From Candidatus Omnitrophota bacterium (lineage in GTDB: Bacteria > Omnitrophota > Gorgyraeia > Zapsychrales > JANLHA01): a stretch of 64,000 bases of DNA. Below the pieces are notes generated by a model that was not told the origin of the DNA, ran no database searches, and worked only from the letters and a program-made list of their open reading frames with translations. Location of the stretch: contig JAKQKX010000065.1 of the NCBI GenBank assembly GCA_029560465.1, positions 5,148 through 69,147 of the forward strand, written 5' to 3'. How positions within the stretch are numbered: the first letter of the stretch is position 1; every line of letters begins with the position of its first letter. Below, in pieces: positions 29,370-46,937 of this stretch. Both the position numbers and the translations under genes were made by a program.

Positions 29370-29765
29370 TCATTGAGCAGGTTTGTCATAAAAATATGGT
29401 TCAAATTCCTTGCGGCACTTCACTTCACAGACAAAAGGGTTGATTTCGGCTTTATTGAATTCACAATCCTGGACGCACGTTTTGCACTGCATAAAAATAT
29501 CGTTGCTGACAAAACGGCATTCCCCGTCCACAACCCGGCATTCCGCGAACTGGCGGCAAAAATCGCCGAGCTGATACATCGCCGTACAGGCCATGGGCTG
29601 GCTGAACCCGCATTGAATATCAAGCCCATGACAATTCTGAATCCGGCATTGTTCTTCCGGCCTCCCCTGCGGCCTGTCAAGGACCCCTTTTTTATCGCCG
29701 CTGCCCAGCAACACGAACACGCCGATCACGAAAGCGCAGGAAACGGTCCATTTGTTAACAATCAT
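29370..29765 (-). CDS. Small secreted cysteine-rich protein (12 Cys), last gene of the Fap-like cluster
   Basis: The likely start is MIVNKWTVSCAFVIGVFVLLGSG (signal peptide/anchor). The mature part is dense in Cys (CRIQNCHGLDIQCGF...CKTCVQDCEF...CEVKC). The track ORF extends to 29855. The overlapping plus-strand ORF 29250..29846 is judged spurious. Confidence 0.4.
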   Translation of the reverse strand: MIVNKWTVSCAFVIGVFVLLGSGDKKGVLDRPQGRPEEQCRIQNCHGLDIQCGFSQPMACTAMYQLGDFCRQFAECRVVDGECRFVSNDIFMQCKTCVQDCEFNKAEINPFVCEVKCRKEFEPYFYDKPAQ

Positions 29766-29924
29766 AATATTTTTCCCCTTATCCGCATATTTTACGGAAA
29801 TAACAACCCGCATTGCAAGACGCCGACAGAATACATGGCTTCTTAAACAACTCATATTTTATCACGCTTTAATGACGTGACGCAATCATAATGAAATTTA
29901 TAACGACTTGAAAAGACGGGGAGG

Positions 29925-31352
29925 CTAGAAACTGTACGGGAAACGGACTTCAAATGTCATGTCAGGCGCATCGCTTGTAAGCCCCAGGCTCACGGCAAAA
30001 TCCATGGAAGCCCGCTCGCTGAGCGCCCAATTGAAGCCGGTTTTGAAGTTAGCCGCGTTCTGAAAAGAACCCGGCACATCACGCCCGTCTCTATTCATCT
30101 TGCCGGTGACGGTGTGGTCAAAGGAAAAATTAATCGCCGTCTGATAACTCAAAGCGATAGCGGTGCCTAAACTGTAGCCGATGGAATCCCCGGGGTCAAC
30201 CTCCCCAAAATTCTCGATATCACCGCGAGGGATATTGTATGTGTAATTGATGCTCCCGAAAACAACGGCCGGATCGCTGGCCTTGGCTCCGACCAGAGCG
30301 CCGCTAACGGCCCAGTGTCCGGTTCCCATAGCGATATCCGTATTATACGGCTCATCCCCCGTGTTGGATTTAACGGACAGGCTCGCCACAAGATCAGGCA
30401 TTATCCCATGCTCCCAGCCGATCTGACGGCTGATCGAAACCTGAATGTCACCCAACCCGCCTTTCGAATCCGTCTGGTCATAAGTTGTGCTGTCGGTATT
30501 GGTGACGCGGTCATATTCAAACCGGCCCGGGACACGAACTTCAGTCTGAAGGTTATGTAAAAGGCCGTATTTAAACGCCCAGGTATGAATAAACACGTCC
30601 CGTTTTACTTTTTCCGTGTTGATGTCCCCAATGACTAAAATAGGAAGTATGCTGAACCCGTTAATATTAATCCGGTTCGAAGAAAAATGGGCGTAGGTCA
30701 AACTCGGTTCAAACTGCAGTTTCCCTTTCGGAAGCAGGATACTGCCTTTCTGAACGAGCGTCCGTTCAATCGAATCGACCCGCTCTAGAGTCCCTCCCTC
30801 CGGCTCGGGGGCTTGGGATGGGGCCGCTTGTTTTTTAGGGGTTTTTTCGGCATGGGATGCCGAAGCCAAAAGCATAACGTCTTGAGAAGGGGCTCTCATC
30901 ATCCCGACGCCGGGCACTTGGACATCCAATTCGATTCCTTGCCCGGCAATAAAACGGTCTAGTTCCTTATCGGTTAAACCAACATTATATTGCTCAACCG
31001 TTTCCCGGACTGTCCGGCGGACCGCCTCACGGATTGATTCTTCGCCTGGCAGGATGGCTTCCACCTGCCGCGGTAGGCCTTGCGGGTTAACGCCCCCATC
31101 AGCCTCCCCCCCTGCCTTCCGGGCCAGATACGAGTCCACTTCTCTACGGATCTCTTCCGCGATAAAAGGTTCCATCTGGGCCAGCACTTCCGCACGGATA
31201 TCCTTCCTGATCTCCTGACGGATTTGCGCGGCAAGGCCGTCCATGTCCCTGGTGGCCTTGGAATAACGGGAACGCAAAGCCCCAAGGGCCAAGAGAAGGG
31301 ATATGGTTATAACTCCCATGATATAAGGGAAGGTTTTTTTAATCATAATCAT
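29925..31352 (-). CDS. Outer-membrane beta-barrel protein with N-terminal coiled coil (FapF-like secretion pore candidate)
   Basis: 475 aa. An N-terminal signal/anchor is followed by a heptad-like helical segment (AAQIRQEIRKDIRAEVLAQMEPFIAEEIRREVDSYLARK). A C-terminal domain of about 270 aa has alternating amphipathic strands and ends in an aromatic residue (FEVRFPYSF), as outer-membrane beta-barrels do. Confidence 0.5.
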   Translation of the reverse strand: MIMIKKTFPYIMGVITISLLLALGALRSRYSKATRDMDGLAAQIRQEIRKDIRAEVLAQMEPFIAEEIRREVDSYLARKAGGEADGGVNPQGLPRQVEAILPGEESIREAVRRTVRETVEQYNVGLTDKELDRFIAGQGIELDVQVPGVGMMRAPSQDVMLLASASHAEKTPKKQAAPSQAPEPEGGTLERVDSIERTLVQKGSILLPKGKLQFEPSLTYAHFSSNRININGFSILPILVIGDINTEKVKRDVFIHTWAFKYGLLHNLQTEVRVPGRFEYDRVTNTDSTTYDQTDSKGGLGDIQVSISRQIGWEHGIMPDLVASLSVKSNTGDEPYNTDIAMGTGHWAVSGALVGAKASDPAVVFGSINYTYNIPRGDIENFGEVDPGDSIGYSLGTAIALSYQTAINFSFDHTVTGKMNRDGRDVPGSFQNAANFKTGFNWALSERASMDFAVSLGLTSDAPDMTFEVRFPYSF

Positions 31353-31355
31353 GTA

Positions 31356-32039
31356 TTACCATTCATTAGTGAACACCGTTGTCCTGAGCTGAAGCGGGTT
31401 AACAAAACGTTTCAAGGACCGGTAGTCCGCCATGCGGATATCTTCATGTTCAATCTGCAAAGCATAATCATTTTTTATTTCGTGGTCCGGGTGTTCCACC
31501 ACGAAACCGATACCATTCGTCCACATCGATATAAATTTTTCATCTTTAATTGTCATATTCCCGACCGCCGGGTCAGCGATGAATACCCTGTCACCGAAAA
31601 CACCCTTAACGACAACAAAATGCCGGTAATTTTTAAACTTGATAGGCACCAGAACCGGTTTCCCAATGGACTTTAAATACTCAAAATCCATGCGGTATCC
31701 TGTCACTTTATAGCCACGGGACTGAGCGAACTTCTTCAAATCAAATAATGAAAATCCCTGCCGTGCCATCACCTTTTCTAAAGGAATCGTGTTCAGGAGG
31801 GAATTAATGATTTCGATTTCAGGGATCGGGTCATTCAAGTAATAATTAAACAAAGTGGCTAACCCGGCCGCGCCGCAGCTGTAGTCCCAGCCTTGTGTCA
31901 CGACATTCTCCTGCCGGATCTCTTTCAAACTCCTGACTTTCTTGTTAAAACCCATCCCCCCAACCGAGAAGCTGGCCGCATTCGCAGGAAGCGCGAGGGC
32001 GCATAAAAGGCAGACAGTGATAAAAAAGTTTTTAAACAT
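31356..32039 (-). CDS. Periplasmic C39-family cysteine peptidase (FapD-like), stand-alone with Sec signal peptide
   Basis: 227 aa with signal peptide MFKNFFITVCLLCALALPANA. The C39 catalytic Cys context is QGWDYSCGAAGLATLFNYY and the His/Asp context is NYRHFVVVKGVFGDRVFIADP. There is no ABC transporter fusion. Confidence 0.7.
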   Translation of the reverse strand: MFKNFFITVCLLCALALPANAASFSVGGMGFNKKVRSLKEIRQENVVTQGWDYSCGAAGLATLFNYYLNDPIPEIEIINSLLNTIPLEKVMARQGFSLFDLKKFAQSRGYKVTGYRMDFEYLKSIGKPVLVPIKFKNYRHFVVVKGVFGDRVFIADPAVGNMTIKDEKFISMWTNGIGFVVEHPDHEIKNDYALQIEHEDIRMADYRSLKRFVNPLQLRTTVFTNEW

Positions 32040-32094: not shown

Positions 32095-32553
32095 TTATGG
32101 CGCGATAATAAGATTATTGTTACTCATCACATTGCCGGCGATCGTTGAATTGATGATAACATTCAAATTGAGGCCGACTAAGACATTGCTGCCTGCCGCA
32201 TTGACATTGATGAGGCTATTGGCGAATTGCTGGGCATAATCCTGCAAATTAATGTAATTGATATCACCGGAACCCGTACTGAATATAGGACTCGATCCCC
32301 TATCCCCGCTAAAAAACAGCGTCGCATCCCCATTCGCCTCCAAAGTGAAATTCAGTTCCGGCGGCATAAATATTTTATCAAAATTTCCAAAAAAATCATT
32401 GAATCCGCTGAAATTAAACCCCTGCGCATAAATCTGATCTAATTCTTCATCAGACAAGAGGACTGCGGTTCCTGAGGCCACGGCCATGGAAACGGCGGTA
32501 TTCAAACACAAGAAAACAGCCGTTATAATCATAATCACACACTTTCGAACCAT
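32095..32553 (-). CDS. Small secreted N/G-rich repeat protein (FapB-like nucleator candidate)
   Basis: 152 aa with a signal peptide, then LSDEELDQIYAQG directly after the predicted cleavage site. The C-terminus has amyloid-like N-rich beta-repeats (NVNAAGSNVLVGLNLNVIINSTIAGNVMSNNN). Confidence 0.5.
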   Translation of the reverse strand: MVRKCVIMIITAVFLCLNTAVSMAVASGTAVLLSDEELDQIYAQGFNFSGFNDFFGNFDKIFMPPELNFTLEANGDATLFFSGDRGSSPIFSTGSGDINYINLQDYAQQFANSLINVNAAGSNVLVGLNLNVIINSTIAGNVMSNNNLIIAP

Positions 32554-32643
32554 CCCTGGGGCCTCTTTCTTTTAATAGTACTTTATTAAGAATTTTTAGG
32601 GGGGAGGATCGCCTCCCCCCTAAAAAATCCGATTTAACTCTTA

Positions 32644-35112
32644 TTAAAGACCATTCGTCACGTTTGCGATGTTGGACTGATTGATCGTACCGTTCAAACT
32701 GCCTGTTGCGCTCATGATATTCGTTTGAACCGCTACGCCCGACCCAACCGCATTCACAGTACTCAACGCAGTGATTCCGGCTTGTGAAGAACCGGATAAT
32801 ATCAACACGTTTTTCTCGCTCTTGTTTTGACGATTTGTGTTGTTGACTTCAGCTATGTTTGTGATGGTCTGACTTGCGTCATTCGTTGTAGCTTCAATGT
32901 CGTTCGTTTCAACTGAATTCTCGGTCTTCTCATACTGATCTTTGAATTCATCATTGTTACGAGCTTGTGCACCTTCAGAAGCCTGCTCTTCGTCATGGTT
33001 AAACGTCGTTGATAAGGCTCCTTCAGCTTCGAAGTTGCTCGTTGTTGACGCACTGCTCTCATCAGAATGATCAGTCGTGTCAATCGAGTCGGTCGAAGCA
33101 GCAACATCACGGGATGCTGATGTGGATAAAGCGTCAGAATCCGTGTACCCGATCGTCAAACTGTTAGAGGACTCCGAAGAATCCGCCTCAGAGGCTGAAG
33201 CAGAAGCCGCATCGTCATACGCTACGTTTAATGAACCGGAAGCGGTTGTTTCAGAAGAAGAAGCGGCTGACGCGGAGTCATTGTAAGTAGCATCCACGGA
33301 ATTAGAAGCCGTTGTTTCCGAAGAAGCGGCGGCTGACGCGGAATCATCATATGCCGCGTTTAAAGAACCGGAAGCTGTCGTGTCAGAAGAAGAAGCGGCT
33401 GACGCAGAATCATTGTAAGTGGCATCCACGGAATTAGAAGCCGTTGTTTCCGAAGAAGCGGCGGCTGACGCGGAATCACTATAGGTTGCGTCTAATGAAC
33501 CGGAAGCAGTGGTGTTTTCAGAAGCGGCCACAGATTGCTGAGCTTCACCAGAAGCTGCCGCATTGGCAGAATCAGATGCAGAGTCATTATAAGTCGCATT
33601 CAGATTTCCACCTTGAGTACTATTGGACTCTGCAGAGCTTGAGCTGGCAGCAGAATCATTGTAAGTCGCAGAAAGCGCGCCAGAGGCATCCGTGCCTTCA
33701 GAACTCGCTGCTGACGTTGATGCTGTGTTATCTTTGCTGTCATACGTATCACCGCGAGAAGCAACACCTTCAACCGTAGTGGTTGATGTTGCGCAATCTG
33801 CGCAAGTGTCTGTGGTCTGGGTATACGTCCCATCAAGCGCCTGGGCGCTTGTGGATGTTTCTCCATCCGTAGCCGATGAACTGCTTGAAGATTCCGACGC
33901 CGCATTATCAGAATATTGGGCATTGGCATCTAAAGTAGCGGATGTCGCGTCTTGAGCCGCAGCCTGCTCAGAGGCGCTGTCTGACGCGGAATAATCAGCT
34001 TCCAAGGAAGAGGCTGTCGCGCTGTCAGACTGTGAACTGCTTTCATACTGGGCGGCTTGGCTGGCGCTTGCTTCATAAGCGGCACTGTCAGAATAATCAG
34101 CCTCTGCACTTAACGTCGCATCAGTTGCTTCTTGCGATTGCGAAGCAGAACTATCAGAGGAAGCGGAATCCGCTGCAAATGTCGCGGAGGTCGCTTCTTC
34201 TGACTGGGCGGCTTCACTGTCAGAATAATTAACAGCTACGTCTAAGGACGCGCTGGTTGCTTCTTGTGATTGCGAAGCAGAACTATCAGAGGAAGCGGAA
34301 TCCGCTGCAAATGTCGCGGAGGTCGCTTCTTCTGACTGGGCGGCCGCACTGTCAGAATACTGAGCTTCAGCATCTAATGACGCAGACGTCGACTCGGCTG
34401 ATTCAGATTCAGACGTGTGAGCGGCTGACTGCTGAGCCTGCTGGTCATAATCAAACGTCGTGTCATTCGATGCGCTGAACTGCGCGTCGGCGCTGTCTGT
34501 TGCCGCGGCGTGATCTTCGCTCAAAGTTGAATCAGTGACTTTAGACGCTGTATCAGAAGTAGCAGAGGTCGATCCGGAAGCGGATGCGTCTAAGGTAGCC
34601 GATGTAGATTCGGAAGAGCTGCTCGCTGCCGAAGACTGCTCATTGTCATAAATTTGAGTATTGTCTTCTTTTTCCCACAGGTCAGAAGTTTTCACCGTGG
34701 TCTCTTTTGACCAAGCATTGACCTGATCCTGTTCCACGATATTCGTGGCCTTGGTGGACACGGAATAATCTTCGGAAGGATTCATGTTGACGACATTCGC
34801 GGCGTTGCTCTGGCTCGCCTCTACGTCAGCCTGATCTTCGGAGTTGCCGACGTTGGTCTGCACGGCAACCGCACTGTCAACGGTGTTGACAACACTCAAT
34901 CCCGTTAAATTTTCCTGTGCTCCACTTTCAGATTTGAGTTTATTTTCGCTGAAATAAACATCTTCCACCACATCACCTTCAGCAATCACAATCCATTCAC
35001 CAGCCGCGATTTCGTCCATCTCGGAATCGGAAAGCGCGATGCCTTCCGCATAACCGGCCACCGGATAAGCGGCGAACGCCACGGCTAGAATCCAAATAAG
35101 TAATTTTTTCAT
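32644..35112 (-). CDS. Large secreted repeat protein (FapC-like fibre subunit candidate) with giant low-complexity Ser/Thr/Ala/Asp linker
   Basis: 822 aa with a signal peptide, then LSDSEMDEIAAGE. An N-terminal N-rich repeat (LTGLSVVNTVDSAVAVQTNVGNSED) and a C-terminal repeat (ITALSTVNAVGSGVAVQTNIMSATGSLNGTINQSNIANVTNGL) match the motif of the 152 aa neighbour. The central region of about 600 aa is acidic Ser/Thr/Ala-rich tandem repeats. Confidence 0.6.
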   Translation of the reverse strand: MKKLLIWILAVAFAAYPVAGYAEGIALSDSEMDEIAAGEWIVIAEGDVVEDVYFSENKLKSESGAQENLTGLSVVNTVDSAVAVQTNVGNSEDQADVEASQSNAANVVNMNPSEDYSVSTKATNIVEQDQVNAWSKETTVKTSDLWEKEDNTQIYDNEQSSAASSSSESTSATLDASASGSTSATSDTASKVTDSTLSEDHAAATDSADAQFSASNDTTFDYDQQAQQSAAHTSESESAESTSASLDAEAQYSDSAAAQSEEATSATFAADSASSDSSASQSQEATSASLDVAVNYSDSEAAQSEEATSATFAADSASSDSSASQSQEATDATLSAEADYSDSAAYEASASQAAQYESSSQSDSATASSLEADYSASDSASEQAAAQDATSATLDANAQYSDNAASESSSSSSATDGETSTSAQALDGTYTQTTDTCADCATSTTTVEGVASRGDTYDSKDNTASTSAASSEGTDASGALSATYNDSAASSSSAESNSTQGGNLNATYNDSASDSANAAASGEAQQSVAASENTTASGSLDATYSDSASAAASSETTASNSVDATYNDSASAASSSDTTASGSLNAAYDDSASAAASSETTASNSVDATYNDSASAASSSETTASGSLNVAYDDAASASASEADSSESSNSLTIGYTDSDALSTSASRDVAASTDSIDTTDHSDESSASTTSNFEAEGALSTTFNHDEEQASEGAQARNNDEFKDQYEKTENSVETNDIEATTNDASQTITNIAEVNNTNRQNKSEKNVLILSGSSQAGITALSTVNAVGSGVAVQTNIMSATGSLNGTINQSNIANVTNGL
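33180..33560. repeat. Near-perfect tandem repeats of about 120 bp (two 60 bp subunits) inside the 822 aa gene
   Basis: The string cattgtaagtRgcatccacggaattagaagccgttgtttccgaagaagcggcggctgacgcggaatca recurs at about 33283 and 33403. It encodes (DATYNDSASAASSSETTASGSL)n. Confidence 0.7.
34136..34399. repeat. Two near-identical 132 bp (44 codon) tandem repeats inside the 822 aa gene, with diverged flanking copies
   Basis: gattgcgaagcagaactatcagaggaagcggaatccgctgcaaatgtcgcggaggtcgcttcttctgactgggcggc occurs at 34136 and again at 34268. The period of 132 is a multiple of 3. Confidence 0.75.
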
Positions 35113-35503: not shown

Positions 35504-36367
35504 TCAAGCGCGGGCCTCCATCTGGGCAAATCCTTGGCGGACTTTAGGTAAGGTTAAACGGCGGGACGTCTGATAAACACGGTAAAAACCCGGAGTCTTC
35601 CCATACGCCTTCTTAAACACCTTGCAAAAATAGCCCGGGTCTTCATACCCGCAGGTATAAGCGATCTCCGAAACTGACAAACTCTTATTCTGCAAAAGAC
35701 GGGAAGCGACTTGCAATCGGGTGTTATTAAGATACTGGGTAAAATTGGTTTTTAACACTTTCTTAATTAACCGGCTGAGATAATGATAGCTTAATCCGGT
35801 TTCTTCACAAAGATGCCGCAGGGAAAGATCCGGCTGGTGGTAATTTGTGCTTATATAACGGGCCACCTTCTCGACAACTTTCTGTTGATAACTCATTGTA
35901 TTATCTTTAAGATTCGAGAACAAGGTCAACTCTTCCCTGATATCCGACAAAAAATTTTCCAAAAGATTAACGATCGCTTTAATCTGTTGATGGCTGAGGC
36001 GGAAATGCGGGGTTTCCAAGACAAGCAAATAACCCACAATATCCTGACGGATTTCAATAGGGAGCAAAATCTTGGCAAACCCGGCCCGGCACTTGTCAAC
36101 CTGGATTTTCCCGGAACTGGTTGCTTTCTCTATAATAGAGGAAATCAGGGAATCACACACCTCAGTCCGGGACTGACAATCCGCGTGGAAATCCTGAATG
36201 TTCTCATGTTGAGGATTATGCAAAGCGGGAGAATAATTGCATTTAAAAATCCGGCCATCCAATGACCGGATTTCCAAGGTGGCGCCACAAAGGATACAGA
36301 TCACTTCTTGGATATGTTTGAACGCATGAGCTTCTTCAAAATACTCTAAGAGAGTATTAAAGTTCAT
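35504..36367 (-). CDS. AraC-family transcriptional regulator with N-terminal Cys-containing sensory domain
   Basis: 287 aa with a C-terminal AraC HTH (LSRLIKKVLKTNFTQYLNNTRLQVASRLL...YEDPGYFCKVFKKAYGKTPGFY). The N-terminus carries conserved Cys/His (ICILCGATLEIR...FKCNY). Confidence 0.85.
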   Translation of the reverse strand: MNFNTLLEYFEEAHAFKHIQEVICILCGATLEIRSLDGRIFKCNYSPALHNPQHENIQDFHADCQSRTEVCDSLISSIIEKATSSGKIQVDKCRAGFAKILLPIEIRQDIVGYLLVLETPHFRLSHQQIKAIVNLLENFLSDIREELTLFSNLKDNTMSYQQKVVEKVARYISTNYHQPDLSLRHLCEETGLSYHYLSRLIKKVLKTNFTQYLNNTRLQVASRLLQNKSLSVSEIAYTCGYEDPGYFCKVFKKAYGKTPGFYRVYQTSRRLTLPKVRQGFAQMEARA

Positions 36368-40506: not shown

Positions 40507-40614
40507 CCAGTTAAACACCCCAAAAATCTTCCAAGGAAACGTTGTCGTCCAGGAAACAACTATTCCAACGGCTAGGCAAACCGGCTTTATATATGTTATA
40601 CTTCAATTGACAAT

Positions 40615-40725
40615 TAGAAAGGTAAACTATTCGAAAGAATAGGGCGCAAAGCCGTGAGCCTAAATCTTCCTGCAAAAAGGCGGGAATGATATGGTTGTCT
40701 GGCTACCGTGACCATCCGGTTTCGT
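40615..40725 (+). ncRNA. Probable c-di-GMP-I (GEMM) riboswitch aptamer
   Basis: UAAACUAUUCGAAAGAAUAGGGCGCAAAGCCGUGAGCCUAAA aligns almost position-for-position with the Vibrio Vc2 aptamer core (AAACCAUUCGAAAGAGUGGGACGCAAAGCC...GCCUAAA). The P2 stem CUAUUC/GAAUAG carries a GAAA tetraloop, and a second stem UUCCUGC/GCGGGAA follows. Confidence 0.55.
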
Positions 40726-40734
40726 GAAAATATG

Positions 40735-40769
40735 AGCCCTTCGAATCTTTCGAAGGGCTTTTTCTTTTT
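40735..40769 (+). terminator. Intrinsic terminator/expression platform downstream of the riboswitch
   Basis: Perfect hairpin GCCCTTCGAA-TCTTT-CGAAGGGC followed by TTTTTCTTTTT. An RBS (AAGGAG) and the ATG of the next gene follow within 15 nt. Confidence 0.6.
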
Positions 40770-40782
40770 AAAGGAGCATTTT

Positions 40783-41046
40783 ATGAATAAATTTTTATTG
40801 ATATCCCTCATCGCAATTCTTCTTGCGCCCTTCTGTCCAAAATCCTCTATGGCGGCGCCGACTTCTTCCCAGGAGTTTAAAATTGTTGTGTATATTCCGG
40901 CGATCCCTGGGATCAATGCCCCCCTGGACAAACTGACTGAAGATGTGCGCGTCGACGGGATGACAGGGACATCATTTTACGTCACGACAGAAGAACTCCA
41001 GGAAGATGGCCAAAAGGTCTTCCGGGAAACGATTGTGGCCAGGTAG
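40783..41046 (+). CDS. Small secreted protein (87 aa) under riboswitch control
   Basis: A strong RBS (AAGGAGcattttATG) precedes signal peptide MNKFLLISLIAILLAPFCPKSSMA. There is no recognisable family. The track ORF starts upstream at 40708 inside the terminator. Confidence 0.5.
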   Translation: MNKFLLISLIAILLAPFCPKSSMAAPTSSQEFKIVVYIPAIPGINAPLDKLTEDVRVDGMTGTSFYVTTEELQEDGQKVFRETIVAR

Positions 41047-41054
41047 GAAGCTGG

Positions 41055-43811
41055 CTATTTAGCCTTTTCTTTGAGGGGGATATTGAACACGTACGTGATC
41101 CCTTCCGCGACTTTAATCTCATTCTTAATTTTAACTAACGGGATACAATTCTTAGGAAGAGAATTGACGTCCAGTTCCAGGACGTGTATTCCGGGCTTAA
41201 TATTGTCAAAACTATATGTCCCTTCAAAATCACTAAATGTTACCTCTTTCCCATCCAAAATAACCTTGGCTTTGGAGACAAACTTGTCATCCTTATCCAG
41301 GACATTGTTTTGATTAGTATCAATGAACACAACGCCGTAAACACCCGACTGGCTGGTCAGGCCGAAGTTGTTCACGTTCACTTTCCTATGCTCAACAATG
41401 ACATCCTTCATGAATCCGTTGGAATTTACGTAACCGGTCGGCAAAGTCGAAATATCCAACGCAACCCGCACCTTCCGGGCTTTAACCTTCGCGAAATATC
41501 GCCCCTGGCTGTTAGTTTTAACGACCTTATCCCCGACTTTGATCCCAATACCGGGGATGCCCTCTTCTCCCAAATCAAGAACAGTATTTCCGTTTATGTC
41601 GTTAAATACACGCCCTTGAAAAATTCCGGTGGGATTCCAGCGGAAAAAGGTATCCCAATTGGTCCGCAACCCTAACCGCACGTCAGCGTCATTAAAAGGC
41701 GAATTGTCAGGGTTTTCCGTCCAAACGCTGCGGATATTGCCATCTAAATATATTTCAAAATCACGATTCGGGCGGTAAACGAACCCTAAAGATCCACGGA
41801 TAGAGTCCTCCCCGGAAAGGAAACTGAACTGCTCTGTTGTCTTCTCTTCATCCCGGTATCGTAAGCTCATCCTTCCGGACAAGGGTTCGAACATCCTCCA
41901 GGTATAATCAACCCCCGTAGTCAGCACATGCGGATATGTCCAATCATCGGCCTGGATATTATGGACAAATGAATATTCATAATTCACGTAAAAACTCATA
42001 TCTGAAAAAAGCGGCATCCGCAGCCCCGCGGATAAAGAATTACGGTCAAACTCAGACGCCGGAGATTTATCATAACGGTTTTGCTGGAACGTCTGCCCGA
42101 GAGAAAACGTCATCGCCCGTCCCCCAAAAAACGGAAAACGCTGATTAAACATATTCATAATACTTCTACTTTGATGCGGGGAAATAAGCTGCGGGGTGTA
42201 GGAAACAAAAGCCCCTGTCGTCCATGAGGACGCGGACGATAGGGGATAGTTAAAAGAGCCGTTCCAGTCAACATTCAGGTCATCCTCTTTGTCGGGATTA
42301 AACAAAAAGCGGTCGCGGTAAATATCAAGATTCGAATTAAGACGGGTTTTCTCTCCCCGGAACGCATAACGTATATTGCCACCCACTTCCCCTCGGTCCG
42401 AAGGACGCCCGACCAGAGTCACATAGTCTTTATCAATATCGCGAAAATTTATGTTTAAAGTATAATTTTTCTTTTTAATCTCCGTCCTAATGACGTCACT
42501 ATAAACGTCTTCATCGGAGGCAATCTCCCCGTATATTTTGAAATCATTGAATTTGTGTTCAGTCTCCGCCGAAAACACTTTATCTTTAAGAAAATTATCC
42601 CGGGAGTCTCCATACCCCCGCCCGACATTAATCGTGTAATTATGGTCATCGTCAGGGAACAACGTGACACTCGCTCCTTCAATATGGGTTTTCTTAACAG
42701 ACAGGATCCCAGGACTGATAAACAAAAACTGGGCGCGGTCCTGCCCTTGAAAGACCGTATAACGAAGATTATGATGCGCCGCGTAACTTTCTAACTTGAC
42801 TCCCCGGAAACTCCGGCCCGGGATTGACAGGTCAGAGAAGAAGACCTCGGTGTCAAAGCCCCGAATTGTAAAATCCCGGAAAGGACCCACGAGGCCATTG
42901 GTCAGCCCTACCCGCTCGCCTATCCGCTCCGTGGATTCGGCATATTTATAAAAATTCATAGAAGCATCAAAATCGCCATAGGGCGTTTTCCCGTACATCC
43001 CAACCCACTGCGAAAAATTGAGGTTTGTCCGAACCATGTCCGGGATACGGTCCCCGAGATAAATACTGCTCCAATTATTAGAATACGCGATATTAAACGG
43101 CGGGGAATCTTCTTTCCCGGTCAATTCAAACTTTTCCACCTGCACGTTCTGCTGAATACGCGGGAGCTGGCCTTTAACGTTAAAAGTCCAGCGGCCCCGG
43201 TCGTCCCAGATGTGAAAAAAAGTATTCGCCCGGACTTTAGTCATAATACTGATACGATTTTGGTCCAACCGATCCACTTCCAGGATTCCTTCGTTGACCG
43301 CCAGGAACTGTTTAATATTCCGGCCCTGCAAAATATAAGTCTTATTCGTTTCGATTTCCAAGTCGGTATTAGGCTGCCTGGCCCACAGCGTGTCATCCAG
43401 GTTAAGGATTGCCGCATGTTTCGGTTTAAGAGCCTCTTCCTTGGCTTTCATCATGGCCGGCGATGCGGTAAACTGCTGCACGATGGCCGTCCGTTCCTCC
43501 TCCCTCTGTTGATCAGGGGTCACCACCTCTTTGGGAAAAACATCCGGTTGCACAACAGCCATGCGGCCTTCCTTAAAACGTTTAATGAGTTTAATGTATT
43601 TGAAAGGAGTTTCTTTGGATGGGGCAATCGCCTGAGCCTGTTCAAAATACAAAATAGCTTTATCATAAAAGCCCTTATCAAAAGCCCGGACGCCCAAACT
43701 CATATAATAATGATAATCAGATTCTGAAGCAGCGGAGCTTGCTCCAGGACAGGAAAGGATAAATAATGCAGCGATAAGAATTCCAAGGAAAAATTTGCTC
43801 ATACCTCGCAA
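41055..43811 (-). CDS. Large outer-membrane protein: N-terminal TPR region, central beta-barrel-like region, C-terminal carboxypeptidase-regulatory-like (Ig-like) domains; usher-like candidate
   Basis: 918 aa with signal peptide, TPR-like helices (YYMSLGVRAFDKGFYDKAILYFEQAQAIAP) and a long Tyr/Asn/Asp-rich beta-strand region. Two C-terminal CarbopepD_reg-like modules are present (VFNDINGNTVLDLGEEGIPGIGIKV...; VYGVVFIDTNQNNVLDKDDKFVSKAKVILDGKEV). Confidence 0.45.
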   Translation of the reverse strand: MRGMSKFFLGILIAALFILSCPGASSAASESDYHYYMSLGVRAFDKGFYDKAILYFEQAQAIAPSKETPFKYIKLIKRFKEGRMAVVQPDVFPKEVVTPDQQREEERTAIVQQFTASPAMMKAKEEALKPKHAAILNLDDTLWARQPNTDLEIETNKTYILQGRNIKQFLAVNEGILEVDRLDQNRISIMTKVRANTFFHIWDDRGRWTFNVKGQLPRIQQNVQVEKFELTGKEDSPPFNIAYSNNWSSIYLGDRIPDMVRTNLNFSQWVGMYGKTPYGDFDASMNFYKYAESTERIGERVGLTNGLVGPFRDFTIRGFDTEVFFSDLSIPGRSFRGVKLESYAAHHNLRYTVFQGQDRAQFLFISPGILSVKKTHIEGASVTLFPDDDHNYTINVGRGYGDSRDNFLKDKVFSAETEHKFNDFKIYGEIASDEDVYSDVIRTEIKKKNYTLNINFRDIDKDYVTLVGRPSDRGEVGGNIRYAFRGEKTRLNSNLDIYRDRFLFNPDKEDDLNVDWNGSFNYPLSSASSWTTGAFVSYTPQLISPHQSRSIMNMFNQRFPFFGGRAMTFSLGQTFQQNRYDKSPASEFDRNSLSAGLRMPLFSDMSFYVNYEYSFVHNIQADDWTYPHVLTTGVDYTWRMFEPLSGRMSLRYRDEEKTTEQFSFLSGEDSIRGSLGFVYRPNRDFEIYLDGNIRSVWTENPDNSPFNDADVRLGLRTNWDTFFRWNPTGIFQGRVFNDINGNTVLDLGEEGIPGIGIKVGDKVVKTNSQGRYFAKVKARKVRVALDISTLPTGYVNSNGFMKDVIVEHRKVNVNNFGLTSQSGVYGVVFIDTNQNNVLDKDDKFVSKAKVILDGKEVTFSDFEGTYSFDNIKPGIHVLELDVNSLPKNCIPLVKIKNEIKVAEGITYVFNIPLKEKAK

Positions 43812-43988
43812 CGTTTCTGCGGTTCCACGGCATCTTCTGAAAAATCCGAACTATAACCCAGCCTCTTGTCCCAAGAATATTTCCCATGGTATCTTTGAAT
43901 CAAATTCAGCATGAGGCCGAAACACAGAAAAATTTTCACCACCTTTATTATAAATATTATCCGGCAAAACAAAAGCGGGATCGGGAAA

Positions 43989-44885
43989 TTAATCCCGTGT
44001 GGCAACCAAATTTATATCCCCTTCCGGATTCTTATTAAAATCAACTTCGATGACCACACTGTCCCCGCGCTCCAAATCAAATGTCAAGACAACCGTATGC
44101 TTCCCCGGAGGGAGTGTTTCAGGAATAACAAATTGAAAATCCGCTTTCGCCTGCGGCGGGACATACAGCTTATTAACTTCTCCCCGGTCTTCGACCAAGC
44201 CATCCTCACTGAGGAAAAAGAAGACTCCTTTGGGGAAAAGCACGACATCCCCCTGGTTATGAAAATTCCCCTGCAGCACTCCTCCATTAAGAGCCAGATC
44301 TTCAACCTTCGCGGATTTGTTCGCATCCGTTGACTCGAGAAAAAACAAAGTGCCAATCCTGGTCACAAAACTCATCCCGATTCTTGACTTAGCCACATCC
44401 GGGCTCATCTCAAAAAAAAGCACGCCATCGCAGCCTGTTTTAAATGATTCCGGGACTTTAACCGAATACTTTACCTCTTGCTTCCCGAACGGCGGAAGGG
44501 TTATTGTATTGGGGCTAAACGTGATTTTGTCCGCGCAGGAATAATCAGAGGTGCCGCTCGGCATAAATTCTTTGTTCCCTTTATCAAACGGTTGGCGGTA
44601 AATAAAATCCTGCCAATACAATTTTACGGCTAACGGCTTATTGGTGCTGTTTGTGACTTCCAGGGAATCCACGATTCCCGAGCCCGGAGCCATTTCATGT
44701 TTAATGACGCTCTTCTGAATAATCAGTTGCGCAGAAACTCTGCCCGGCATACCGAGTAAACCGACAAAGAAAAAAGGGATTATATGGATAAATCGATGCA
44801 TAAGTTTAATAACTTTTGCGGGCAGGTTACTCCTGCCCGCAAAAGTTTCAATTTTTAAAAACAAATTACGGTCCAGGAGCAGCAA
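43989..44885 (-). CDS. Periplasmic protein with PapD-like pilus-chaperone N-terminal pattern (two Ig-like domains)
   Basis: The likely start is the internal MHRFIHIIPFFFVGLLGMPGRVSA (near 44801). The mature N-terminus AQLIIQKSVIKHEMAPGSGIVDSLEVTNSTNKPLAVKLYW follows the chaperone pattern A-x-[LIV]-x-[LIV]...[LIV]x[LIV]xNxxxxP[LIV][LIV]xxW. Single-base sequence reading around 44820 was ambiguous, so the coordinates follow the ORF track. Confidence 0.35.
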   Translation of the reverse strand: MLLLDRNLFLKIETFAGRSNLPAKVIKLMHRFIHIIPFFFVGLLGMPGRVSAQLIIQKSVIKHEMAPGSGIVDSLEVTNSTNKPLAVKLYWQDFIYRQPFDKGNKEFMPSGTSDYSCADKITFSPNTITLPPFGKQEVKYSVKVPESFKTGCDGVLFFEMSPDVAKSRIGMSFVTRIGTLFFLESTDANKSAKVEDLALNGGVLQGNFHNQGDVVLFPKGVFFFLSEDGLVEDRGEVNKLYVPPQAKADFQFVIPETLPPGKHTVVLTFDLERGDSVVIEVDFNKNPEGDINLVATRD

Positions 44886-45549
44886 CAGTCATGGTTAACG
44901 TGCCGGTGTAATTACCAGGCGTGTCTCCCGGATTAAACGGGATAGCCCCAGCAGGTTCCGATTCAAGCGGATTCCCGGTTGAAAGCCCGACATAAAAACG
45001 CAAATACTGCCCGTTGGCTAAAATATCCGCAGCATAAACAGTTTGTGCGATGTTCGCCAATATCGCCCGGGTTCCTATTTGAGTTTCAGTGTCATCGGTG
45101 TAAACATCCGGAGTCCCATTGTTGTCATTCGCAACAGGCGTTCCAATGGCATGAACTCCAAGGCCACTTCCATCATTCGGTGAGCCGTTGGGGTTGTCGT
45201 CATCCGTATAAGTAAGAGTAACATTAAGAGCACCCGCCCCATACGGCCACACATCAACAGCATAGTAAACATCGCCCAGGTAAGCATATTGAGGTGGATC
45301 CCCAGGATCCGCGACATTAGTGAGGATCGGCTCAAACTGCAAAGTTGTGGACGGCCAATCTGTGAATACCCCTCCGTCAACCTGGTAGACTACGAACGTT
45401 GCCGTGCTGGCGTTGTCGATGTCAACGGTAATCGGGAACGTCGCCGAGCTGGTCTGCGCCGAGGCGCCGGACACGAAGCACAACAAGGCCCCCACCATTA
45501 ACACCGTTAAGAAAGTTAGTTTTCGCATTTTCTTCCTTCCTCCTTTCAA
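44866..45549 (-). CDS. Secreted beta-rich protein (fibre/pilin-like subunit candidate)
   Basis: Signal peptide MRKLTFLTVLMVGALLCFVSGASA, Thr/Asp/Gly-rich with a Pro-rich C-terminus. No family assigned. Confidence 0.4.
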   Translation of the reverse strand: MKGGRKKMRKLTFLTVLMVGALLCFVSGASAQTSSATFPITVDIDNASTATFVVYQVDGGVFTDWPSTTLQFEPILTNVADPGDPPQYAYLGDVYYAVDVWPYGAGALNVTLTYTDDDNPNGSPNDGSGLGVHAIGTPVANDNNGTPDVYTDDTETQIGTRAILANIAQTVYAADILANGQYLRFYVGLSTGNPLESEPAGAIPFNPGDTPGNYTGTLTMTVAAPGP

Positions 45550-45557
45550 AAATTAAA

Positions 45558-46937
45558 CTAAATGGCACCTAATGAATACATCACTTGCACTTTATAATTA
45601 CCAGCCTGCATATTCGGATAAGGCTTCATACGGTAACTCACAGTCAAAACAGCTGACGACCCCAGGTCGTCTGAAACGTATAAAGGAACCTCACCCTTGC
45701 TTACTGGAGAAAAATCGTCGTGTTGAACGCTTCCCTGCCCATCAACAAGTTCTTCCTTGAATGTAAAGAATTCGCTGGAAAATTCCTCCCCCTCTTCATT
45801 AGTCAGCGGTGCGTGTAAAATTTGATTCACGACATACGGTTTGCCCAAGTTTGTCTTGACCGCAACTTTAATCTCCTTAATTTGCGGCGGGTCGGTTTCC
45901 AGGGTGCCGTGAAAACTCATACCCTCGGTGGGATACTCCACGTTCAGTTCAAAAACCGGGTCCACCACAAGCTCCAAATGAACATCAAACACGTGTTCAC
46001 CCCGCCTGCTTTCAACAATATATCTGGCAGCGCCTTCATAACGGCCCGCCTGGTAATTTTGCACCAAATCCTGATTCACGCTATAGTTAACTCCGATTGT
46101 ATCGTGGCTGGCGGTCCCTTCATAAATAAGCGTTTGTTCCGGCCGCAAATCACCCGAGGACTCCTGAAGGACCTCCCCCCGTTCCCCCCCAAAAACCAGA
46201 TATTGAATCAAACCCAATTCAACCGACTGCATCAACTCGTCTCTGGGGAAGGCGTCGATCTTTTGATAAATCTTAATGGGGTTGCCTTCAACGTTGTTCG
46301 TAAAAGAGATCGAAAAATTCGCCTCTGAAACAGGCCTCTGATCTGTTGTTATCCTGATGCGGTCCTGACCGGCATTCCCAGACGTTTCAATCTTTAAATC
46401 GCCGCCAGCTTCCAAAGTGACAGTCAGGACTCTTTCATCAATTGCCCCCTCACCTATCTGACGGACAGTATAAAACATCTGTCCCTGAAAAGATCCTGAA
46501 ACGCTCAACGCATCCGGGTCGACTTTATAAAAGACCACAAAAGAATCCGCGGTCCCGGAAGGGTCAGAAGAATAAATCTGCTGATCGGAAAGCCCCAAAG
46601 GCTCAACATCCTGAATATAGAGCGTGCCACGGGAATTGGAACCAAGCAACCCCCCGCTTAAGATAGCGGAGCGATACAGGGTTTCCCCTTTTTCATTAAC
46701 CAGTGGGCCTATCCTTTGAAAGACCTGGTATTGTTGCCCTTCATCAGAATTCACACGGATACGGACTTCCTTATCTTCTGAGGAGAAAGTATCTACACGC
46801 CCAAAACGGATACTCCCGCCCCCTTCAGCCGGAATCACAGACAGCGTCACCGCGGCAAAAGATAAATTAGGGATAATTTCTATTAAAAATAATATTAATG
46901 CTATAGTTAAATATTTTTTTAAGTTTACATAATTCAT
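45558..46937 (-). CDS. Secreted multi-domain beta-rich protein (tip/adhesin-like candidate)
   Basis: 459 aa with a signal peptide and repeated Ig-like strand patterns. It is the first gene after a 170 bp AT-rich promoter tract. Confidence 0.4.
   Translation of the reverse strand: MNYVNLKKYLTIALILFLIEIIPNLSFAAVTLSVIPAEGGGSIRFGRVDTFSSEDKEVRIRVNSDEGQQYQVFQRIGPLVNEKGETLYRSAILSGGLLGSNSRGTLYIQDVEPLGLSDQQIYSSDPSGTADSFVVFYKVDPDALSVSGSFQGQMFYTVRQIGEGAIDERVLTVTLEAGGDLKIETSGNAGQDRIRITTDQRPVSEANFSISFTNNVEGNPIKIYQKIDAFPRDELMQSVELGLIQYLVFGGERGEVLQESSGDLRPEQTLIYEGTASHDTIGVNYSVNQDLVQNYQAGRYEGAARYIVESRRGEHVFDVHLELVVDPVFELNVEYPTEGMSFHGTLETDPPQIKEIKVAVKTNLGKPYVVNQILHAPLTNEEGEEFSSEFFTFKEELVDGQGSVQHDDFSPVSKGEVPLYVSDDLGSSAVLTVSYRMKPYPNMQAGNYKVQVMYSLGAI

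Follow-up and report, generated by a model that had tools for sequence, protein, structure and literature searches.

The 64,000-nucleotide stretch of Candidatus Omnitrophota DNA analysed here (from contig JAKQKX010000065.1; hereafter the window) contains four co-oriented minus-strand genes, spanning 29.9-35.1 kb, that encode two cargo proteins with Sec signal peptides, a stand-alone periplasmic peptidase of the C39 family and a FapF/FilC-like outer-membrane protein (OMP). Both cargo proteins carry, shortly after the predicted Sec cleavage site, a short leader motif with the spacing of the double-glycine leaders that C39 peptidases recognise, and a third copy lies in the OMP. It is probable that this operon encodes a distant Fap/Fil-type secretion system whose cargo bears two N-terminal signals acting in series, a Sec signal followed by a leader that is recognised, and probably cleaved, by the periplasmic C39 peptidase before export through the barrel. 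The genes and the motif copies are located as follows (aa, amino acids; ORF, open reading frame; PSSM, position-specific scoring matrix).

32644..35112, minus strand: cargo-1 gene, 822 aa, acidic Ser/Ala/Thr/Asp-rich repeat protein (ORF list)
34996..35034, minus strand: cargo-1 leader motif L27-S-D-S-E-M-D-E-I-A-A-G38-E39, residues 27-39, LSDSEMDEIAAGE (PSSM score 33.1)
32095..32553, minus strand: cargo-2 gene, 152 aa (ORF list)
32419..32457, minus strand: cargo-2 leader motif L33-S-D-E-E-L-D-Q-I-Y-A-Q44-G45, residues 33-45, LSDEELDQIYAQG (PSSM score 35.5)
31356..32039, minus strand: gene of the stand-alone periplasmic C39 peptidase, 227 aa (ORF list and Pfam)
29925..31352, minus strand: gene of the FapF/FilC-like OMP, a beta-barrel protein of 475 aa (Pfam and NCBIfam)
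30939..30977, minus strand: third motif copy L126-T-D-K-E-L-D-R-F-I-A-G-Q138, OMP residues 126-138, LTDKELDRFIAGQ

The leader motif in the window

The signal peptides, which were called from sequence features alone, cover residues 1-22 of cargo 1 (MKKLLIWILAVAFAAYPVAGYA/EGIA-LSDSEMDEIAAG-E, where the slash marks the predicted cleavage site) and approximately the first 24-26 residues of cargo 2 (MVRKCVIMIITAVFLCLNTAVSMA/VASGTAVL-LSDEELDQIYAQ-G), and the motif occupies residues 27-38 and 33-44, respectively. In cargo 1 it begins 4 residues past the predicted GYA/E signal-peptidase site, and the leader-region peptide of cargo 2 is VASGTAVLLSDEELDQIYAQGFNFSGF. The initial annotation of this DNA had placed the motif directly after the Sec sites of both proteins, and this was borne out: it lies 4-8 residues past the cleavage site, beyond the hydrophobic core and the AxA-type site, and outside the signal peptide. 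The third copy, absent from that annotation, lies in the OMP, in the periplasmic linker that joins the charged, helical N-terminal region to the barrel, about 55 residues before the latter. It is kept in the OMPs of loci L081, L082, L001, L002, L003 and L071, while the flanking linker diverges, and its carriers are an Omnitrophota clade and one metagenome-assembled genome (MAG) of Desulfobacterales.

The motif in the window is genuine and well beyond what chance would produce. The pattern L[ST]D.E[LMIV]D.[IVLF] gives three matches in the six-frame translation of the 64 kb, all of them in this one minus-strand operon, where 0.002 are expected from residue frequencies and none appeared in 200 shuffles. 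When the two cargo proteins are compared by BLASTP, the best shared segment is the signal peptide plus the motif region, a weak match (E 0.07), and nothing else is shared outside this N-terminal segment. Neither of them, nor the 161-aa product of a downstream ORF described below, matches any Pfam or NCBIfam model in a library that included FapB, FapC and FapE, and by this measure the cargo proteins are not FapB/C/E homologues.

Conservation follows the motif in both proteins. The syntenic orthologues of cargo 1 in L081 and L082 retain the same N-terminus (the gene itself is built of 66/132-nt tandem repeats, which are 22/44-residue repeats in the protein), and residues S34, D35, E37, L38, D39, A43 and G45 of the cargo-2 motif are invariant over five orthologues. 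The cargo-2 family is rare, with 61 representatives at E<=1e-3 among 1.84 billion proteins, and 53 of the 61 have a signal peptide and a leader near residue 30; within the motif, position 12 varies (G/E/Q/H/K/S), and A11 and G13 are fixed. Cargo 2 also has a conserved C-terminal module (AQQ..NVNAAGSNVLVGLNLNV..NS, residues ~105-150; family consensus AQQ..(L/V)VNVNAAGSxVPVxxNLxVxxNS), which could serve in assembly or act as a second element for secretion. Strings like this module can be seen by eye at residues ~70-90 and ~780-822 of the 822-aa protein (SVVNTVDSAVAVQTNVGN; STVNAVGSGVAVQTNIMSA), a likeness that BLASTP did not detect.

The stand-alone C39 peptidase

The 227-aa protein matches the Pfam family Peptidase_C39 (PF03412) with E=3.6e-22 and 79.1 bits (cut-off 22), and its residues 1-21 form a Sec signal peptide (MFKNFFITVCLLCALALPANA/AS, ending …LPANA/AS), which agrees with its earlier description as a stand-alone C39 peptidase with its own Sec signal. 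An N-terminal hydrophobic segment is present in 95 of 100 full-length homologues, and the catalytic set Gln49, Cys55, His140 and Asp156 is invariant across 33. No ABC (ATP-binding cassette) transporter domain was found in the ORF or by Pfam.

The closest solved sequence is that of LahT147 (6MPZ; PDB profile match, E 1.8e-14). The AlphaFold2 model has a mean predicted local distance difference test score of 85, with core residues 40-180 above 90, and superposes on the ComA peptidase domain (3K8U) with a template-modelling score of 0.85 and 2.3 Å; it also superposes on LahT and PCAT1. As judged from the sequence and this predicted structure, the stand-alone peptidase has the features of the C39 family, that is, a papain-like fold, catalytic Cys and His with an Asp, and the oxyanion Gln. 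Past the C39 core, residues 186-227 (31356-31481, minus strand) make up a C-terminal extension of ~40 residues that is common to the periplasmic family and missing from ABC-fused C39 domains; it is modelled with low confidence and might be a docking tail for the barrel.

Among the NCBIfam models the best match is FilB, with 140.9 bits and below its cut-off of 475, and C39_FapD follows with E=1.3e-33 and 116.1 bits, below the 330-bit equivalog cut-off. By these scores the window peptidase would be a FapD homologue and not an equivalog.

Comparison with the double-glycine leader code

The recognition consensus established for ComA is Leu-12-x3-Glu-8-Leu-7 ahead of Gly-Gly/Ala/Ser, and the determinants of C39 recognition that have been defined experimentally are Leu-12, Glu-8, Leu-7, Val/Ile-4 and a small residue at -2 (PMC6363468). 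A logo built from 76 non-identical motif instances of 44 loci shows L/M/V/I at -12, D at -10, E/Q at -8, L/M at -7 (100%), D at -6, V/I at -4, T/S at -3, A/G at -2 (100%) and, at -1, G in 49%, Q in 34% and other residues in the remainder. The window copies and the 76 instances thus agree with the code at positions -12, -8, -7, -4 and -2, and the spacing of the motif is identical to that of the ComA/LahT recognition rule.

This is the part of the double-glycine match, as first proposed, that holds; at position -1 the match is incomplete, the residue being G in cargo 1 and in the OMP, Q in cargo 2, and in the wider set often Q, R, K or E. Classical C39 domains require Gly/Ala/Ser at this position. 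The end of the NHLP/Nif11 leaders, which we take to be LSDEELEGVAGG, is nearly the same string as the motif. When the leader segments were searched against NCBIfam at E<=10, the matches were a marginal one to a VP1 pheromone model (E 0.07) and one to the FilA model.

Compared with the PCAT/AMS double-glycine systems (ComA, LahT, PCAT1), the peptidase fold, the catalytic residues and the leader code (L-12, E-8, L-7, V/I-4, small -2) are the same (PMC6363468). The differences are that the window peptidase is periplasmic and free of an ABC fusion, that its leader follows a Sec signal peptide whereas in PCAT/AMS it forms the very N-terminal end of a cytoplasmic precursor, that the -1 residue of the window type is often not Gly, and that the cargo consists of large proteins exported through an outer-membrane barrel. 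The leader would work like a double-glycine leader, but on its sequence context it fails two features that define the family, the extreme N-terminal position and the ABC-fused peptidase.

Occurrence of the motif beyond the window

Loci around peptidase relatives were collected from species-representative genomes (80 loci, from Omnitrophota, Acidobacteriota, Aquificales, Desulfobacterota, Nitrospirales and alpha-, beta- and gamma-proteobacteria). An independent test used a BLOSUM62 profile built solely from the three window copies (score >=26): it gave 36 matches in the 80 other FapD/FilB-like loci, as opposed to 1.0 in shuffled sequences, and all 36 lie on the peptidase strand, from 8 kb upstream to 3.5 kb downstream of the peptidase start. 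The statistics of the wider PSSM are partly circular, since it was trained on instances from the same loci, and this does not apply to the window-only profile. Iteration with short hidden Markov models of 13-19 residues left the set of matches unwidened owing to HMMER weighting, and the PSSM and the BLOSUM profile were used instead.

Among the 101 PSSM matches, 85 have a strongly hydrophobic 10-mer within 45 residues upstream (8.9% at random positions), and the median distance from the end of this hydrophobic core to the motif is 11 residues (interquartile range 10-16). This distance places the motif just after the signal-peptidase site and not within the signal peptide, where its presence would have spoken against the proposal in its original form. 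At least one protein with signal peptide and leader is found in 64 of 84 loci, and several further loci have weaker versions. The carriers, found in Omnitrophota, Acidobacteriota, Aquificota, Desulfobacterota and Pseudomonadota, are mutually unrelated: most belong to no Pfam family, and those of the Fil type belong to DUF6160, a "family of unknown function". Unrelated cargo that shares only the motif is what would be expected of a sorting or processing tag.

In some loci (L058 from Noviherbaspirillum, L056 from a Rhodospirillaceae MAG, L008, and L080 from Methylobacter) 4-6 different small leader-bearing proteins are encoded in a row upstream of one peptidase, and these arrays resemble multi-precursor bacteriocin or lanthipeptide clusters.

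Relation to the Fap and Fil systems

In the Fap system of Pseudomonas, FapF is the secretion pore, a trimeric barrel, and FapD is a periplasmic C39 peptidase whose catalysis is required for secretion, the C38A mutation abolishing it; the Fap proteins were described as having no canonical C39 sequences, and the target of FapD was stated to be unknown (Rouse et al., 2017; PMC5557850). Of 111 full-length true Pseudomonas FapE sequences, retrieved with the FapE peptides given in the supplement of that study, 108 contain [LM]xD[AS]E[LM]A[ED]LRGR[FY] from residue 29, which is 8 residues past the signal peptide (…AYA/SS); position -1 is R/K/G in FapE. Together with the ComA/LahT spacing, this supports the suggestion, made when the motif was first noticed, that it is a candidate FapD determinant. 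In many proteobacteria FapE-like proteins encoded just downstream of the peptidase read …ELDxMRGG[FY].

The divergent Paraburkholderia Fap operon L050, which served as a positive control, matches the FapB, FapC, FapD, FapE and FapF models and has the motif in its FapE homologue only. The matches listed for the Paraburkholderia FapE-like protein were all Paraburkholderia proteins. In public databases these FapE-like proteins (P. fungorum 10662-11474 in L050; homologues P0124-P0243) are widely annotated as "peptidase C39", yet each is the FapE homologue encoded next to the peptidase and not the peptidase itself.

In the whole-cell proteomics data of Rouse et al., obtained by mass spectrometry, the FapE peptides begin at residue 72 (PMC5557850). 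The only convenient tryptic peptide of the leader region, SSAFKPIEMNDAELAELR (residues 21-38), is unseen in those data, which fits removal of the leader without proving it.

The Fil system, a putative pilus system of Acinetobacter and Pseudomonas (NCBIfam NF050077-80), shows the same class of motif in FilA/DUF6160: in Pseudomonas and Kistimonas loci that match the FilA-D models, MDDSALSxVTGQDG immediately follows the signal peptide of the FilA-like proteins. Locus L011, which matches FilA-D, was the positive control here. The Tol 5 proteome supplement lists FilA at the protein level only.

The window operon resembles Pseudomonas Fap (PMC5557850) in that a gene for a stand-alone, Sec-exported C39 peptidase lies beside one for a FapF-family barrel with a helical periplasmic N-terminal region, that secreted fibre or matrix cargo is encoded upstream, and that FapE has the same leader motif after its signal peptide. 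It departs from Fap in its scores, far under the equivalog cut-offs (116 versus 330 bits for the peptidase and 151 versus 700 for the barrel), in having no FapA, FapB, FapC or FapE homologues, in its cargo (a Ser/Ala/Thr/Asp-rich repeat protein and a small NVNAAGS-module protein), in its Omnitrophota host, and in carrying the motif on all cargo and on the barrel, as opposed to FapE only in the Paraburkholderia Fap-type operon. With respect to Fil, the window peptidase scores best with FilB, but the operon has neither DUF6160 cargo nor a FadL-like FilD, FilC-type barrels are without the long periplasmic domain, and all scores are below cut-off. These comparisons indicate that the window operon is neither a Fap nor a Fil operon; it would belong, with new cargo and as a distant member found in Omnitrophota, to the class of secretion systems that pair a C39 peptidase with a barrel. 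In the open literature searched, neither a description of the motif for FapE, FilA or DUF6160 nor a later paper settling the FapD substrate was found; papers outside it are possible.

The outer-membrane barrel and its copy of the motif

The OMP matches Pfam Phenol_MetA_deg and has a long, charged, helical N-terminal periplasmic region. Its match to the NCBIfam FapF model (E=5.3e-44, 150.7 bits, cut-off 700) extends over residues 194-475 and covers the barrel part only (profile positions 106-420), and FilC scores 60.7 bits (cut-off 630). A homologous FapF/FilC-like barrel gene is present in 77 of 84 peptidase loci.

The long helical domain was considered as a general receptor of the motif and was rejected, because FilC-type and Aquificales barrels have no long periplasmic domain and their cargo still has the motif. 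For the same reason the peptidase is likely to be the common reader; besides the barrel, no other conserved component of the loci is likely to be in a position to read it in the periplasm. The motif copy of the OMP sits at the place where, in the speculation of Rouse et al. (PMC5557850), FapD could cut FapF. Speculatively, cleavage at this copy could change gating, or the peptidase could dock there and so be kept at the pore.

Proposed export route and its alternatives

The sequence of events that would account for these observations begins with the passage of the 822-aa and 152-aa pre-proteins across the inner membrane via Sec and the loss of their signal peptides, as predicted from their N-termini. 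The new N-terminus would then expose, after a spacer of 4-8 residues, an amphipathic leader (L-S/T-D-x-E/Q-L/M-D-x-V/I-x-A/G-x), whose function is suggested by homology and whose hydrophobic residues at -12, -7 and -4, acidic residue at -8 and small residue at -2 would fit the spacing of a ComA/LahT-type hydrophobic groove. By the same homology, the Sec-exported C39 peptidase would bind the leader in the periplasm and most probably cut at the invariant small residue or directly beside it. For cargo 1 this predicts the bond between G38 and E39 or that between A37 and G38, and for cargo 2 the bond between Q44 and G45 or that between A43 and Q44; cutting one position ahead of the canonical register, after the always small A/G, is an equally good guess. 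The processed and still unfolded cargo would pass, as in FapF, through the FapF-like barrel. Finally, and speculatively, the peptidase may dock at the motif copy of the OMP or cleave the channel protein to alter its gating, as this copy stands between the barrel and the helical periplasmic domain.

The part of the earlier proposal that concerns a two-step route, Sec export followed by periplasmic C39 processing, has strong comparative support from the occurrence of the motif after signal peptides beside FapD/FilB-like peptidases across several phyla; its analogy with LapG is the weaker part. LapG is a bacterial transglutaminase-like cysteine proteinase that cuts a di-alanine site in the retention module of LapA; it releases an adhesin already anchored in a type 1 secretion outer-membrane pore, under c-di-GMP (cyclic di-GMP) control via LapD, and export itself is LapG-independent. 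The common ground is a cysteine protease in the periplasm with a target, in the window a putative one, in the N-terminal portion of a large repeat adhesin, and to that extent the likeness stands. It is loose, however, because the window protease is of the C39 family and not LapG-like, and because LapG acts on an adhesin that has already been exported. Neither LapD, LapG nor type 1 secretion genes were detected in the operon with Pfam and NCBIfam. Another system with a two-signal logic is curli, in which the Sec signal peptide of CsgA is followed by a short segment, N22, that guides the unfolded fibre subunit to its own channel in the outer membrane. Mature CsgA keeps N22, which has the CsgG/CsgE machinery and no protease as its reader, and we know of no sequence similarity between N22 and the window motif.

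Several observations weigh against leader processing by the peptidase as set out above. The -1 residue is often Q (cargo 2 and the Fil type), R/K (FapE) or E, and because of this, and of the variable position 12 of the cargo-2 family, the scissile bond is uncertain and recognition without cleavage is possible. The bare leader segments have no significant match among the curated NCBIfam double-glycine-leader models, the VP1 pheromone match being marginal, and approximately 12-20 of 84 loci are without a detectable motif, some of them on truncated contigs. FapB and FapC have no motif in the Fap-type operon examined (Paraburkholderia), and yet FapC secretion needs FapD (PMC5557850), which means that the tag is not required on every secreted subunit. 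The missing N-terminal peptides of FapE are weak evidence, given that most of residues 39-89 yields no usable tryptic peptide, and in all members the cleavage of the leader, most probable as it seems, is argued from homology.

Binding without cleavage is the main alternative. The motif would then be a periplasmic targeting or handover signal, bound by the C39 protein acting as receptor or chaperone, or by the barrel, and left uncut, and the true substrate of the peptidase would be another one, for instance the OMP linker only. The frequent Q/R/K/E at -1, unfavourable for classical C39 cleavage, would be explained in this way, and the curli subunit CsgA, which keeps its N-terminal targeting segment, offers a precedent. 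Another is provided by the non-catalytic, substrate-tethering C39-like domains of type 1 secretion systems (cited in PMC5557850). An uncut signal is nonetheless disfavoured by a catalytic Gln/Cys/His/Asp set that is invariant in the family, by a secretion that requires FapD catalysis (PMC5557850), by a -2 position that is Ala/Gly in 100% of instances, a constraint like that of a cleavage site, and by the FapE leader peptide missing from whole-cell proteomics, so that we regard this explanation as unlikely, if worth keeping in mind.

Appreciably less probable still is a structural role of the motif in the mature fibre or matrix proteins, such as that of an N-terminal helix or strand used in subunit assembly, its double-glycine likeness then being a coincidence. 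All carriers do appear to be surface, fibre or matrix proteins, and conserved hydrophobic or Gly-rich residues follow the motif in some families (GFNF.., DGISISG); but the cargo families are unrelated in fold and composition and share only the motif, at a fixed distance from the signal peptide, a copy is also found inside the periplasmic linker of the channel protein, all of the 36 top matches are coupled to a peptidase gene, and the spacing agrees at five positions with an experimentally mapped protease code (PMC6363468). As for an artefact of chance or of acidic, low-complexity N-termini, the acidic, Ser/Asp/Glu-rich composition of the cargo could invite it, and its probability is negligible: the statistics of the window (3 observed versus 0.002 expected) and of the other loci (36 versus 1.0, with perfect strand and position bias) already refute it, and the motif is kept in orthologues while the flanks diverge.

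Implications for FapD/FilB peptidases and their cargo

Since the same leader is found on FapE of true Pseudomonas Fap and on FilA/DUF6160 of Fil, it is likely to be a general substrate determinant of FapD/FilB peptidases. A broader proposition is that a general bipartite export code, a Sec signal plus a periplasmic double-glycine-type leader, defines the cargo of FapD/FilB-FapF/FilC systems in at least five phyla, that a C39 peptidase, relocated to the periplasm from the cytoplasmic side of ABC exporters, reads and removes the leader, and that in Omnitrophota the channel is a substrate too, with the protease switching the pore; to this we assign roughly even chances of being right or wrong. 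If it is right, FapE, and not FapB or FapC, would be the FapD substrate in Pseudomonas, and cargo could be predicted from sequence alone.

The substrate of FapD and its recognition sequence were left open in 2017, and the motif turns this into a precise, testable hypothesis of which protein would be cut, where and through which residues, the candidates being FapE, FilA, both window cargo proteins and perhaps the channel. It would also give a sequence rule for otherwise unrecognisable, family-less cargo in uncultured phyla such as Omnitrophota, exemplify the re-use of a double-glycine processing module downstream of Sec, and offer a possible secretion tag for engineering and a target for anti-biofilm work on Pseudomonas and Acinetobacter.

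Neighbouring genes and other observations

The surroundings of the operon contain the following features.

35504..36367, minus strand: AraC/PocR-type regulator, directly upstream of the operon (Pfam HTH_18 and PocR)
32593..32626, minus strand: terminator-like hairpin with a 15-bp stem and 8 G-C pairs, between the cargo-1 and cargo-2 genes (consensus scan only)
29370..29855, minus strand: Cys-rich ORF, 161 aa as listed, directly downstream of the barrel gene

Near-identical peptidases in databases carry the annotation Candidatus Omnitrophota, and the syntenic loci L081 and L082, with peptidase identities of 72% and 81%, have the same gene order, including the AraC/PocR regulator in the same upstream position. 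This regulator may control the operon. The putative hairpin may attenuate transcription, leaving the 822-aa protein in excess over the products of the downstream genes and thereby setting the stoichiometry of the subunits. The Cys-rich ORF has no family match in Pfam or NCBIfam; its start is probably internal (MIVNKW…), with a hydrophobic segment, and its position is taken by a 131-aa gene in L081 and by radical-SAM/B12-binding genes in L082.

Farther along the window, a c-di-GMP-I riboswitch (RF01051) was identified at 40611-40710 on the plus strand, with 63.8 bits against a gathering score of 35, and is followed by a small ORF (40708-41046, plus strand) with a signal-peptide-like start, MNKFLLISLIAILLAPF…. 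The riboswitch adjoins a minus-strand cluster of signal-peptide-bearing proteins of 918, 298, 227 and 459 aa (41055-46937), which looks like another surface-structure locus.

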